Made by a program: the position numbers | Source: an uncultured Acidobacteriota bacterium | GTDB lineage: Bacteria; Acidobacteriota; Polarisedimenticolia; J045 | Assembly: GCA_963702425.1 (NCBI GenBank) | Contig: CAVPCQ010000038.1 | Coordinates: forward strand, 4,992-68,991 | Reading direction: 5' to 3' | Length of the DNA: 64,000 nt | In this document: in pieces, positions 30,001 through 36,000 of the stretch | Numbering within the stretch: the first letter of the stretch is position 1 | Layout of the letters: the number at the start of each line of letters is the position of its first letter

Positions 30001-33000
30001 TCTGCGCCAGCAGGTCGGACAGCTCGGCCCGGCTGTGGACGCGGTCGACGAGCGGCAGGTAGCGCGCCTTCATCCCGCTCCAGTCGATCCCGTGCATCGC
30101 CTGGTCATAGAAGTAGTCGCGCTCGAGGCGCCAGGCCTCGTTGAACATCTGCCGCCACTCCTCCCGCGGGTCGACCGGCAGCGTGAAGGCCGTGAGATCG
30201 ACCTTCTTCTTGTCGAGGTCGGTGACCGGCGCGGCCGCGGCGTCGAAGACGTAGAGCGCGTCGTCCTTGCGGACGAGGAGCTTCTTGCCGTCCGCGCTGG
30301 GCTCGGCCGAGAGCACGCCGGCGAGCACCGTCTTGACCTCCGGCTTCTCGTTCGTGATCTCGAGCGCCTGGAGGTCCGCCTTCGCGCGCTCGCCGGCGGT
30401 CGACGACAGCCAGTAGAGCGCCTTCTCGGTGACGAACAGGCCGCGGAAGTTGCCGGGCGGGACGGGGACCTCGAGCAGCCGCGCCGCGAGGCCGTCGGGA
30501 TCGACGGTGGTGGGGGGCGGGGTGTCTGGCTTGACCTCCGGCGAGCCGTCGCTGCGCTTTCCGCTGCTCTTTCCCTGCTCTCCCTTCTCTGTCTTGTCGC
30601 GCTTCTCGCCGTTCTCCCGGTTCGCGTCCTTCACCTCCTTCTTCTCTGCAGGGGGATGCAGCTCGTCCGCCGGCTCGAACGGCGACCGCAGGTCCGGCGC
30701 CAGCGCCAGCAGGTAGACGCGCGTCGTCTTGTCGAAGTAGGGCTCGGGCTGCATCAGTCCCCAGGGGCCCGGGACGAGCGAATTGAGGTTCCGCTCGGAG
30801 AGGAAGGCGAGCCACTTTCCATCCGCCGAGAACGCCGGGGACGAACTGTCGTAACGGTCGGTCGTCGCGAAGAGCGCCGCGCCCCCCTCGACCGGGTAGA
30901 GCTTCACGCGCCGGTTGAGGTTGTCGCCGGGGACCGCGGCCGCGAGCCAGCGACCGTCGGGCGACCAGGCGAGGTCCTCGATGTCGGCAATCGCGGACTC
31001 CTCCAGCTTCCGGGTCGCGCCCGTCGCCTGGTCGGTGATCCACAGCCGCTGGTTCTTGTCGGTGTGCGCGATCCGCTTGCCGTCGGGGGAGGGGAGCGCG
31101 ATCCAGCGCAGCACCTCGCCGCCCCTCGTCACCTGACGCGCGTCGCCGACGCCGTTGGCGGGAAGCGTCCAGAGCTCGACCTCGCCCGACTCGTCCGAGA
31201 GCGCGACCAGCGACTTGCCGTCGGGCAAGAAACGCGCGTCGCGGAAGCGCACGCCCGGCCGGCGCGAGGCCTCGACGAATCGCCCGGGGCCCACCGGTGC
31301 GACGAACACCTGCCCGCGCGCGGTGAGCACCACGCGCTTGCCGTCGGGCGACAGGTGCGCCGAGGTCGTCCAGGTGAGCGGATCCTTGACGGTCCGCTCG
31401 CGCGTCTGGTCGAGGTCGGAGCCGAGCGTGATCGCCAGCGGCGTCTCCGTTCCGGCGGCGATGTCGAAGAGGAACAGGTCGGCGCCGGAGCGGAAGGCGA
31501 TCCGTCCCGCGTCGAGCGACGCCTCGGCGATTTCCCAGCTGCGCTTGGTGTGCTGCCGCAGATCCTTCCCGTCGCCGGTCATCGACCAGAGGTTCATCGT
31601 GCCGTCGCGATCGGAGAGGAAGTAGACCCGCTCGTTCCAGACCATCGGGCCCTTGCTCGTGCCGGGGTAGTCGCCGGTCAGGAGCACCGCTTCCGCGGCG
31701 CCGCCGTCCCAGCGCCAGATCTGCTGCACGGTGCCGCCGCGGTAGCGCTTGGTGTGGCTCCCCTGGAACGGCAGCCGCGTGAAGTAGAGCGCCGTTCCGG
31801 CCTCGTTCCACGCGCCGTCGGCGGCCTGCGCCAGCGGGATCGGCTGCGACGATCCCGACGCCGGATCGAGCGTCTCGAGCTGGACGGACGGCAGGGTGGA
31901 GCGCGCGGTGGTGGCGTAGAGCACGCGGCCGTCCTTCGTCCAGCCGGCGACGGTCGGCGTGCCCCCTCCACTCGACGCCTGCCAGGTGTGCCGCATCGGC
32001 GGGCCGCCGGCGAGAGGCATCGTGTAGACCTCGGCCGGGCCGTCGTAGCGGGCGACGAAGGCCACGGTCGTCCCGTCGGGCGAGATCGCCGGGGATCCCT
32101 CTCCGGCGGCGTCGGTCGTCAGCCGGGCCGCGACCCCGCCGCGCGCGGAGACCCTCCATAGGTCCCCCTCCGAGACGAACACGATCGTCTCGCCGCGCAG
32201 CGAGGGCTGGCGGTAGTAACCGAGCGGGGCCGCGGGAGGTGCGGGGCGGGCCGCCGCAGCGGCGGTTTCAGCGGCCGGGGACGTCGTTCCGGTCGCAAGG
32301 CCCGGAAGCGCAAGAGACAGACCACACGCGAGCAGGGCAGAGCGCGTCATCGAACCTCCGGGTGCGTCGAGTGCCGCCGGGATGATAGCGGAGCGGGAGC
32401 GGCACGCGTCGCCCGCCGGAGGAGAGCGATCCGAGCCGGCGGCCGCACGGCCGCTCCGCGCCGCCGCTCGTCCCGCGGCCGCTCCGCGCCGCCGTTCGTC
32501 CCGCGGCCGCTGCGCGCCGCCGTTCGTCCCGCGGCTGCCGATACAGGGGGCCCGTCCGAATGCACATCCGGCGACAGAGGACCCCCTCGAATGCACACAT
32601 CGTCCCCAGCGACGGCGTGATGACTCCCACCTTGAGCCCAAGTTCACCGCAAAGAGTCGCCGTGCGCCACCGCCGACCGGGTTCCGGTCGCGATCTTCCT
32701 GCCGGCGAGGGCCTGCTCAGCGCGGCGGTGTGCGTTCGAGGGGGTCCTCTGTCGCCGGATGTGCATTCGAGGGGGTCCTCTGTCGCCACGCCGACATTCG
32801 GCTGTGAACGCTGTCGCGGTCTCTCGGCCCGGCCGCGGATCGTCGGGTCGGCCGGGGCCCCGCTTCGACCTGTCGCCGCCACGTCGCATGCCGGCGCCGA
32901 CCACGGCGCCGGCCTCCGTGCCGCGTCGGTCCGGAACGTCGCGACCGGCAAGGGAGCGGGCCGCTCCCGGGCTAGAATCCGGACGGACCGGTTCCCGTCC

Positions 33001-36000
33001 CCGACGGAGTCCCATCGTGCGCCGCATGCTCCAGTTGCTGTCATCAGGGTGCCTCGCCGCACTCGCGGGCGGGTGCGCCGCCGCCGATTCGCCGGCAGCC
33101 GAGGAATGGGCGCGCTGGATGCTGCGCGGGCTGCCCGGGGTCTCGGTCGCGTGCACCCCGAAGCTGGAAAGCGACCCAGCCATGACCGTCCACTGCGTCG
33201 ACCTGGAGATGCCGTGGAACGAGTTTCGGCGGGAGTGGGAGTCCGCCCTCCGGTCGGCCGGCCGGTCGTTTCCCGACACGGGGTGGCTCGATGAGGGGAA
33301 GCTGAAGCGCCGGCGCTACATCGTCTTCGACGTGCCCGTCGACGTTTTTCGAGACTCCGCGGGCTCGGGCCTGGTGATCGCGGTCCCGCGCTTCTTCCTG
33401 GATTGCGACGAGGTGAACTGGGGCGATGTGATCGACCTCGACCAGGACACCTCGGGGGAGATCACGCGCCCGCAGCTCGAGCACCGGGTCGAGGCCGTCT
33501 ACCCGGAACGCGAGCGCCGGGCCAGGCGCCTAGTGTCACGTAACCGAAGTCACGCTAACGCCGGGGCGGTCTGGCAAGCCGATGGCTGCGTTGCTCCTCC
33601 TTGCTGTACGGTTCAGTACAGCGTCGTCGTCGCGCCTTGCCCTCGGCTCACCATCCTCGCCCTGGCATTAACCTGACTTCGGTTACGTGACACTAGGCAG
33701 GGTCTGGATGATGGGACTGATCCGCACGGATGGGCACGTCGCGCCGCTCTGCATCAAGTCGTCGGAGGGCGCCACGCCCGCGATGAACTCCGCCGCGCTG
33801 CGCGCGCTCGCGCAGTGGCGCTACGCGCCGGCGCTGCGGGACGGCCAGCCGATCGCGGTGCGATTCGTGGTGGCCATCAGTTTCTCCGTCCGCTAGACGC
33901 GGCGGCGCACCGGCACCTACGGTGCACGCGAACCGACGCGCAGCATCGCCGCCGCTCCGATGCGCCGCTCGTCCCCCCGTCGCCCCTCGACGCGCCAGTA
34001 GAGCGAGCCGCCGTCGCGCGCCAGCGCCGTCGCGCGGCGCCACTGGTCGGCGCCCGGGGTCCACGACGTCGCACGGGTCCAGCGGCCGGAGGTCACGATC
34101 CGCCCGGCGGCCTGCGGGTCGGCGCTGAAGACGACGCGGCATTCGTCCATTCCGGCCGCGTCCCAGGAGAACGTCGGGAGCCGGTCGGGCACGGCCGCCG
34201 CCGCGCCGCCGCCCGCCGCCAAGCCCGCCGCCGTGTCCACCACCGCGCCATCGCCCGGCGCCAGCGGCCGCGGCGCGGTGTCGTCCGGGTACCACCGGGG
34301 GAACGCGTCCCCCCGCGGCCAGGCCTCGGCGCGCGCCGCGGCGCGCCGCAGCACGGACTCGACCTCCCACAGGAACGCCTCGGTCTGCACCGGCTTCGTA
34401 TTGAAGACCGCCGCGAACGCGCGGCCGTCGGTGATCCGCATCAGCAGCGCCGTCGAGCCGAAGAGCGAGCCGCCGTGCCAGACGGCGGCGCGCGGCCCGT
34501 CGGGACGCACGTACCAGCCCAGGCCGTACCAGGCATCGCGCAGGATCCAGGTCGATAGCTGCGGGCGGAGCAGCATCAGGCGCTGGGTACCGGGCGAAAG
34601 GAGATCCGGCCGCTCCGGCAGCCCGTCCACCGCCGTCATGAAGCGCACGAGGTCGATCGCGGAAGCGGTCCAGCCGCCCGCGCTGTCCATCGCCTCGATG
34701 TAAAACCCGCCATCCGGCCAGGCGACCAGGTCCTCCTCGTCCGGGAAGACCGAGCGGACGAGCGCGCGAACTCCGGAGTCGTAGTAGCGCACCTCGCCGG
34801 CTGGCCGGTCCGCGGGCCGGGAGCGCCCGATCCGCATCCGCGTGATCCCGAGCGGGGCGAGGATTGCGCTCCGCACGTACTCCTCGTAGCCCATCCCGGA
34901 AGCGTGCTCGATGACCCGGCCGAGCAGCGCGTAGCCGAAGTTGGAGTAGGAAAAGCGGCCGCCCGGCGAGAAGTCGAGCGGCCGACCCTTCACGAAGCGG
35001 ATCACCGTGCGCGCGTCGGCGGGGGCGGGGGCGTCGACGGCCTGCGCGGTGAGGCGCGGCGCGAACATCGGGTCGAGCGAGAGCAGGCGATCCCAGCCGG
35101 CGGAGTGGTTGAGCAGGTCGCGCACCGTGATCCGCTCCAGCCGCGGGTCGGGGCTGGCGCCGGCGGGAGGAGCGAGGTCGGGGAACATCGGGAAGACGCG
35201 CTCGTCGAGGCGCAGCCTCCCGTCCTCGACCAGTTCGAGGATCGCGGTCGCGGTCACCGTCTTGGAGACGCTGCCGATCCGGAAGACCGCATCCGGGGCG
35301 ACGGGCAGGCCGCGCGCGACGTCGGCGTAGCCGAAGCCGCGAGCGTAGACGAGGCGGTCGTCGCGGATCACGGCCAGCGCGCCGCCGGGGATCTCCCAGC
35401 GCTCCATCAGCGCCAGCATCTCGCGGTCGAAAGCGGCCAGGCCGGGCACGGCCGTGCCGGTGATCGGGAAGGGGTGCGTCTCGCGGGCGACGGGGGTCCG
35501 GCCGGGGGCGGGGGCCGGGGCGGCGGCAGGCAGGGCCGCGGGAGGCGGGGCAGCGCACGGTCCCGGCGTGGCCACGAGGCCCGTCGAGAGGAAGGCGACG
35601 ATCGCGAGGCGCCGGCCGGGCATCCGCGAGACCTCCGGGAGCGGGATTATGCCCGCCCCGGGGCCCCCCGGCTGCGCCGCCCGAAGGGGCCGGCCTTCGT
35701 GCCGGACCGACCGACGACGGGCAACCAGCGGGCCGGCACAGAGGCCGGCCCGACCGACGACAGGCAACCTGCGGGCCGGCACAGAGGCCGGCCCCTACGG
35801 CGTCATCAGGGAGTCGGCTCCTCGCCCGAGGTGCCGGCGGCGTTCTTCGCCGCGACCAGGTAGAACGACGAACCGCTCGCGGCCCCGCCGGTCGTGTCGC
35901 GCCACGCGGCCGACGTCGGTTCGCCGACCGCCCCGTACCCGCCGGTCGGCGTCCCCGAGCGGTAGACCGGGTAGGTGCGGGCCGCGTCGTGCAGTGCGTC

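Follow-up and report, generated by a model that had tools for sequence, protein, structure and literature searches.

Flanking genes and anatomy of the inverted repeat

The 64,000-nt stretch of DNA analyzed here (hereafter the window) is part of contig CAVPCQ010000038.1 of an uncultured Acidobacteriota bacterium (assembly GCA_963702425.1). It contains a 660-bp gap between two divergent genes, in which an inverted repeat at positions 32536–32790 is the subject of this study. The left-hand flank of the gap is formed by a tricorn protease gene (28946–32350, minus strand; Pfam domains Peptidase_S41, Tricorn_C1 and PDZ_Tricorn; 100% identity to P0001), and the right-hand flank by a gene for a TonB_C-domain lipoprotein (33017–33896, plus strand, GTG start at 33017). 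The latter gene is interrupted by a 161-bp MITE (miniature inverted-repeat transposable element; 33533–33693), and excision of 33533–33695 restores an open reading frame (ORF) of 238 aa that matches TonB_C (PF03544, E = 1.1e-13). Between ~32260 and 33050, the GC content does not vary with codon phase, whereas it is periodic on either side. The gap is therefore non-coding, and a hidden small gene was rejected as a candidate, because codon periodicity is absent and the long spurious ORFs of the gap have no Pfam match. The original prediction, made from this DNA alone, had described the gap as unusually repetitive and as unexplained by any protein-coding gene. This description was borne out, as the repeats are real, the codon phase is flat, and no Pfam match was obtained.

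The inverted repeat is 255 bp long. Its two 62-nt arms each consist of two direct copies of a 31-nt unit, TGTGCATTCGAGGGGGTCCTCTGTCGCCGGA, and are thus arranged as 2+2 units around a centre (spacer or loop) of 131 nt (32598–32728), at which the TGTGCA heads of the inner units point inward. The inner units on the tricorn side (32567–32597, minus strand; TGTGCATTCGAGGGGGTCCTCTGTCGCCGGA) and on the TonB_C side (32729–32759, plus strand; TGTGCGTTCGAGGGGGTCCTCTGTCGCCGGA) were found by the inverted-repeat search and by an nhmmer model of the unit. The outer unit on the tricorn side (32536–32566, minus strand; TGTGCATTCGGACGGGCCCCCTGTATCGGCA) is the most degenerate copy and was recognized by the unit model with E = 0.0012. 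Its equivalent on the TonB_C side (32760–32790, plus strand; TGTGCATTCGAGGGGGTCCTCTGTCGCCACG) was also recognized by the model, and a counterpart of it survives in the related locus L013 (see below). Considered as a plain inverted repeat, the arms at 32543–32598 and 32728–32783 comprise 56 nt, are 89% complementary with 129 nt between them, reach 100% complementarity over their inner 28-nt stretch, and represent the longest inverted repeat of the window. Tandem Repeats Finder (TRF) reported a period of 31 nt with 2.1 copies at 32735–32800. A possible degenerate third unit in the 31-nt register follows at 32791–32821 (plus strand, 18/31 matches to the consensus) and was not detected by the unit model. 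The 31-nt unit has no internal hairpin of its own. The region had previously been described as a 43-bp inverted repeat with an extra direct copy of the arm at 32761–32786. All of these repeats, including the extra copy, are real, but they are better described as four 31-nt units in the 2+2 arrangement.

Conservation and history of the locus

Annotations assign the nearest named relatives of the tricorn protein to Acidobacteria metagenome-assembled genomes. Loci from relatives were fetched via the tricorn gene and via the adjoining gene of the beta-lactamase family. Locus L005, whose beta-lactamase is 87% identical to that of the window, has the same 2+2 architecture (units at 9665–9726 and 9858–9919, 31-nt spacing, 131-nt centre). 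Here the repeat extends from a few bases past the beta-lactamase stop codon to 82 nt upstream of the tricorn start. L002, L003 and L004, which are identical to one another at the repeat, contain a 2+2 version that has diverged further (L003 units at 3462–3523 and 3643–3704, 119-nt centre). The three full copies lie 82–313 nt upstream of the tricorn start codon, and their transcription context differs, with the L005 repeat following a stop codon and the window repeat lying between divergent genes. Of the repeat, L013 seems to have kept just the outer pair of units, which form a short hairpin fused to the final 57 codons of TonB_C. The 9-nt sequence CGCCACGCC, which was read at the L013 junction, occurs on the plus strand of the window at 32784–32792 and at 33770–33778 (inside the TonB_C gene), the presumed end points of the L013 deletion. 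The presence of this direct repeat at both junction points suggests that the deletion proceeded via microhomology.

Other relatives have an intact tricorn gene and lack the element. In L015, L016 and L017, the repeat is lacking and a Fer4/nitroreductase gene is located between the beta-lactamase and tricorn genes. This gene or a remnant of it was found in L015 (2335–3246), L017 (4688–5587), L013 (3898–4191) and L003 (3788–3862). It is cut to its first 25 codons beside the repeat in L002, L003 and L004, and nothing of it is left in the window or in L005. The apparent "229-aa gene" that precedes tricorn in L003 and L004 has no homology to TonB_C and is a spurious ORF composed of the repeat and the first 25 codons of the lost nitroreductase gene. 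A derivation of the repeat from the nitroreductase gene was rejected, since the two have no similarity. The repeat was also rejected as a general feature of tricorn genes, as loci with 61–62% identity have other neighbours and upstream gaps of 28–50 nt.

In a tree of the beta-lactamase, L003 clusters with L015 and L017 and not with the window. This grouping implies that the repeat is older than the split and that some lines subsequently lost it or retained it in collapsed form. Furthermore, its occurrence at the same position in lineages that have diverged to near saturation indicates that it was inherited vertically and not recently inserted. The ancestral order was likely beta-lactamase, TonB_C (opposite strand), repeat, nitroreductase (opposite strand) and tricorn, and we infer that several independent deletions followed, in a sequence that can be reconstructed only tentatively.

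The gene content between the beta-lactamase and tricorn genes differs in almost every sampled lineage. At L017 4640–4673 and L015 2300–2340, the convergent beta-lactamase and nitroreductase genes are just 17–31 nt apart, without an inverted repeat. The L017 gap contains a hairpin with a 13-bp stem that overlaps the beta-lactamase stop codon and may act as a bidirectional terminator. The tricorn homologue of L005 (P0004; 10001–13501, 1166 aa) matches the window protein over 72% of its length only and has no Peptidase_S41 match on record, which suggests that it is frameshifted or that its C-terminal part is truncated.

Divergence of the arms and the centre

The three full copies (window, L005 and L003) were aligned over 55 stem pairs. 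The arms are free of gaps in all three lineages, and the centre has 2–22 gap columns. Across the three lineages, 90.9% of the cells pair, and 16 of the 55 stem pairs have changed on both sides, a number reached by none of 500 shuffles. As a control, partners that were slid by 1–3 columns paired at just 30–49%. The changes on both sides cluster at the adjacent positions 6–7, 17–18, 23–24 and 27–28.

Watson-Crick complementarity of the arms within a genome (44–51 of 55 pairs, 80–93%) is higher than the identity between lineages (64–80%), the orthologous unit cores being 0.80 identical between the window and L005 and 0.64–0.66 identical in comparisons with L003. For the two flanking genes, identities at fourfold sites range from 0.62 to 0.82, and a rough two-state correction of these values gives neutral expectations for ungapped sequence of 0.67–0.81 in the first and 0.55–0.62 in the second of these comparisons. 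These comparisons suggest that the arm sequence diverges at about the neutral rate, or slightly slower, with its pairing retained.

The conserved feature is the match between partner units. In L003 the tail TTCCGAAGA is common to both inner units, and in L005 both outer units open with TGGGCA, a pattern that DNA-level copying between the arms would be expected to produce. Inner and outer units share invariant positions at chance level (6 vs 5.0 expected, P = 0.35). The wobble-type mismatches (G.U versus A.C), 12 in total, are distributed 6:6 between the strands. The centre is saturated, with 36–52% identity between lineages and with gaps, and has no significant RNA fold in any lineage on either strand.

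Copy number and database searches

The nhmmer unit model, built from twelve units, was searched against the window and all fetched loci (~150 kb in total), and its matches were confined to the locus upstream of tricorn. This single-locus result covers the 64-kb window and the fetched loci, and the source genome as a whole may hold further copies. The unit model gave no cross-matches to the repetitive extragenic palindromic (REP) hairpins or the TA-flanked MITE of the window, and kinship of the repeat with either was rejected.

A search of Rfam at E ≤ 10, which had been proposed for this region, yielded CC3513 as the sole match (14.4 bits against a gathering score of 40, E = 7.9), which is at chance level. 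The whole gap had no BLASTN match in plasmid and phage collections. The unit pattern had 0 matches in viral contigs and one chance match, in a Planctomycete terminator hairpin, among the GTDB representative genomes. A looser pattern had 4 single chance matches to JGI metagenome contigs, in unrelated DNA with 54–56% GC. These viral, GTDB and JGI scans are weak negatives, because the patterns were unable to match L003-type units and the first pattern was also blind to L005-type units; in addition, the collections do not contain the source genome.

Interpretation of the inverted repeat

We favour the explanation, with a probability of roughly 0.45, that 32536–32790 is an old, vertically inherited quasi-palindrome at the DNA level, which is kept symmetric by copying from arm to arm and is located in a spot of repeated deletions. 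Such copying would proceed by template switching during replication or by gene conversion between the arms, and a change arising in one arm would thereby be reproduced as a matching change in its partner. The arms would then drift near the neutral rate and yet stay complementary, and the unpaired centre would diverge freely. The palindrome would sit in a deletion-prone gap between the beta-lactamase-family and tricorn genes, from which the nitroreductase and TonB_C genes would have been lost repeatedly in different lineages. If so, no dedicated cellular function would be required to explain the element. What the data show directly is the anatomy, the constant position in relatives, the two-sided changes in the stem and the lack of RNA-type and operator-type signatures. 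Template switching has been found to correct imperfect inverted repeats in bacteria, preferentially (PMC5941160), and to yield compensatory changes of several bases that mimic RNA covariation (PMC8794818).

Several observations weigh against this explanation. Only three independent full copies are available, and therefore all statistics are weak. The arms have no indel and their 31-nt register is intact in the presence of several indels in the centre, which may reflect some constraint, and the core identity between clades (0.64–0.66) slightly exceeds the rough neutral estimate of 0.55–0.62, which may indicate weak purifying selection. The direct copies on one arm are alike in the window and in L005, and the TC variant at unit positions 17–18 occurs in three of the window units, which is unexplained by arm-to-arm copying alone. 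Moreover, template switching is deduced from the pattern, and the copy count covers the window and the fetched loci.

If the quasi-palindrome explanation is correct, the locus is a clear natural example of a point established mostly in model organisms, namely that a long intergenic palindrome that is neither an RNA nor an operator can persist through divergence at the genus level and accrue substitutions that look compensatory. It would also call for caution in covariation-based RNA discovery in GC-rich metagenome-assembled genomes. On present evidence, the element adds a further case to a known kind, long intergenic inverted repeats whose arms are maintained by concerted evolution, and does not appear to represent a new system.

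An unlikely alternative is a platform of four protein-binding sites, in which a sequence-specific protein would bind the 2+2 phased units and loop or wrap the ~130-bp spacer. Candidates for this protein are a regulator, a nucleoid protein and a recombinase or transposase that has been domesticated, and the platform would govern the promoter of tricorn and, in the window, also the divergent one of TonB_C. In line with this idea, the units of all three lineages follow one another at exactly 31 nt, or about three turns of the helix, with arms free of indels, and a core of xGTGCx..CG....GG..C.CT recurs in the majority of the 12 units. Covariation of the direct copies in the window and in L005 fits as well, and all full copies are placed within 82–313 nt upstream of the tricorn start codon. 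That same range, however, shows that the distance to the gene is not fixed, and the L003 centre is shorter by 12 nt, so that the helical phase between the arms is not kept. In addition, the invariant positions shared by inner and outer units are not in excess of chance, the divergence of the arm sequence is about neutral, and the variable positions co-vary between the arms, which independent binding sites need not do. Among the 19 large ORFs between 15.7 and 59 kb of the window that were scanned against Pfam, there is no DNA-binding regulator or recombinase except for a sigma-70 factor, whose gene (47125–48114) is 14 kb from the repeat, and the tricorn gene is intact in relatives that lack the element. 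The multi-operator site of the original prediction is thus compatible with the 31-nt phasing but gained no positive support.

In a broader form, which we also regard as unlikely, a conserved nucleoprotein platform or double-stranded RNA that is specific to the genus would control the secreted tricorn-type protease via a factor encoded elsewhere. The likeness of the arms would then be kept by selection and not merely by copying. If such a functional explanation held, a large secreted protease in a phylum that has received little study would be under the control of an element particular to this lineage.

It is doubtful that the element is the single decayed copy of a non-autonomous transposon of the foldback or MITE type, which would have been inserted before the lineages split, would carry two transposase-binding direct repeats in each long terminal inverted repeat, and could have other copies in the genome. 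Its structure resembles such an element, with 62-nt terminal inverted repeats composed of direct repeats, a length of 255 bp, no ORF and a variable interior. Small mobile repeats are also abundant in the genome (in the window, two copies of the TA-flanked MITE and clusters of GTAG-tagged REP), and the element is absent from some relatives. Nevertheless, it was seen at one locus only in the window and the loci of the relatives, its position is constant across deep divergence and hence provides no evidence of movement, and no transposase was found among the scanned ORFs. A target-site duplication is not visible in the window, L005 or L003, although the flanks have diverged to saturation and may no longer show an old duplication. 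The plasmid and phage collections contained no match, and the viral, GTDB and JGI sets had no real match to the unit pattern (1 + 4 chance matches, some in DNA with ~55% GC), where the scans could match only window-type and L005-type units in collections that do not include the source genome. The earlier suggestion of a second MITE type therefore received no positive support, as one locus was found in the window and the fetched loci and no target-site duplication is visible.

The covariation of the arms could also result from a long RNA hairpin in a transcript, with a stem of ~60 bp and a 131-nt loop, which might serve RNase III processing or transcript stability in the tricorn or TonB_C leader and ancestrally could have been located between the nitroreductase and TonB_C genes. 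We consider this improbable. Both strands do fold beyond shuffled sequences (−175 and −169 kcal/mol, z = −10.3 and −9.3), pairing persists at 16 stem positions that have changed on both sides, and the pairing is more conserved than the sequence. An RNA stem that is selected on one strand should, however, tolerate G.U but not A.C mismatches. The observed ratio is 6:6, and six or fewer G.U among 12 would have P ~0.02 if 80% G.U were expected. The loop is neither conserved nor structured, the transcription context in L005 (after a stop codon) differs from that in the window (between divergent genes), and the internal direct repetition would be left unexplained. No Rfam family matched, and together with the unfolded loop and the 6:6 mismatches this leaves the structured non-coding RNA that had been predicted without positive support. 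Template switching at the DNA level, moreover, gives the same covariation (PMC8794818).

That the element is an inverton, in which recombination between the arms flips the 131-bp centre, is very improbable: inverted repeats do flank a short intergenic segment between divergent genes, and arm-to-arm recombination would presumably homogenise the arms as well, but the window centre aligns with that of L005 only when both are in the same orientation (z = 3.0 vs 0.2 for the inverted orientation, other pairs being saturated and uninformative), no promoter-like site was found in the region, where the window centre has no TA dinucleotide and thus cannot contain a −10 hexamer of the TAnnnT type, and no recombinase is encoded by the scanned ORFs.

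Other features of the gap

Next to the tricorn gene, the segment 32351–32394 (minus strand) is the sole part of the gap that can be aligned in all lineages. It comprises the conserved tricorn leader with a GGAGG ribosome-binding site and a putative stretch of core promoter, in which TATCAT (32382–32387) is probably the −10 element. In every lineage, the homology upstream of tricorn ends at CGCTCCGCTATCAT, and this shared end point probably marks a −10 region that was spared by each deletion. A simple scan for promoters and terminators called zero sites in 32200–33200.

Between this leader and the inverted repeat lies a tandem array of a 28-nt unit (32448–32535; TRF period 28, 3.1 copies, score 162, 96% matches), which confirms the three 28-bp tandem repeats noted previously. 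The array starts directly at the tail of the outer 31-nt unit. Its unit occurs at a single location within the window (shuffles expect 0 matches), and the array has no significant fold. Related flank sequence is present in L005 merely as a 15-nt repeat in two copies, and L003 has no array. We read the 28-nt array as a lineage-specific expansion by slippage (a minisatellite) of flank sequence beside the inverted repeat.

The segment 32791–33016, which contains two GC hairpins and a TAGAAT hexamer, is the upstream region of the TonB_C gene and is not spanned by any of the fetched relatives. Both of the predicted hairpins are present. The first, CCGGCGCCG-ACCA-CGGCGCCGG (32891–32912), has a 9-bp stem made entirely of GC pairs and folds with −23.8 kcal/mol (z = −4.0, matched by 0 of 200 shuffles); it was passed over by the terminator scan because no T-run follows the stem. 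The second is a short hairpin at 32952–32968 (z = −2.6, matched by 4 of 200 shuffles) within a plus-strand stretch that extends to 32978. The TAGAAT hexamer had been misplaced by ten bases to 32963–32968, and its actual site is 32973–32978. Located 39 nt upstream of the TonB_C start codon, it may serve as a −10 element, and the scan called no promoter there.

The MITE that splits the TonB_C lipoprotein gene is one of two copies in the window (33533–33693 and 55688–55848), which are identical at 159 of 161 positions, have terminal inverted repeats of ~36 bp and are both TA-flanked (CTA|...|TAG). Taken together, the 660-bp gap can be regarded as a patchwork left over from repeated deletions of neighbouring genes, in which the conserved core leader of tricorn, the minisatellite expansion and the old palindrome are followed by the upstream region of a TonB_C gene that a MITE has broken.

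Other features of the window

REP-type hairpins with a GTAG tag (GTAGGGGCCGGCCTCTGTGCCGGCCC) are located at 22095–22121, 35683–35798 and 44607–44724, either singly or in clusters that resemble bacterial interspersed mosaic elements (BIME) and include a 27-nt tandem array in three copies. The same GTAG-tagged REP family follows the beta-lactamase stop codon in L018 (3499–3573).

An M14 carboxypeptidase (35818–39443, minus strand) is a single protein of 1209 aa in L002, L005 and L014 but is split over three frames in the window (39443–37836, 37837–37739 and 37734–35818). This implies two frameshifts ~100 nt apart, which stem from a pseudogene or from an assembly error. At 53554–54558, seven direct DNA repeats of ~153 nt correspond to the blades of a Kelch beta-propeller in a secreted protein of 892 aa, which also has MopE, PKD and CARDB domains and represents ordinary coding repetition.

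Comparison with known systems

The fimS switch and the invertible promoters of Bacteroides are invertons. Like the element described here, they have inverted repeats that bracket a short intergenic segment near genes for surface or secreted proteins, but neither an inner promoter nor a nearby recombinase nor the opposite orientation was found in our case. Several transposase-binding repeats per end are known from the TnsB sites of Tn7, the ends of Mu, and the inverted repeat-direct repeat (IR-DR) ends of Tc1-like elements. These ends share with the inverted repeat two direct-repeat sites per arm and mutually inverted arms. Here, in contrast, transposase and cargo are absent, the TGT-type heads point inward and are not situated at the outer termini, and evidence of mobility is lacking.

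MITEs and small foldback repeats such as Correia/NEMIS and the enterobacterial repetitive intergenic consensus (ERIC) are families defined by many dispersed copies. They are likewise small, non-coding and intergenic, with long terminal inverted repeats that can fold into a long hairpin, whereas our element was seen at one locus, at a conserved position and without a target-site duplication. GTAG-tagged REP and BIME sequences (PMC3733652) are also GC-rich intergenic palindromic DNA, and true GTAG-REPs exist in the same window. The 31-nt unit differs from them in that it is not a hairpin and carries no GTAG tag, and the unit model gave no match to the REP clusters at 22095, 35683–35798 and 44607–44724.

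The quasi-palindromes described from E. coli and other proteobacteria (PMC5941160) and from hairpin stems (PMC8794818) resemble the inverted repeat in their complementary drifting arms, their adjacent changes on both sides, the lack of strand bias, the free spacer and the existence of deletion derivatives. For our element we infer the mechanism from these features. Compared with the short repeats of those studies, its arms are much longer (62 nt, made of two direct 31-nt units) and are separated by a spacer of ~130 nt, and its direct copies co-vary in two lineages.

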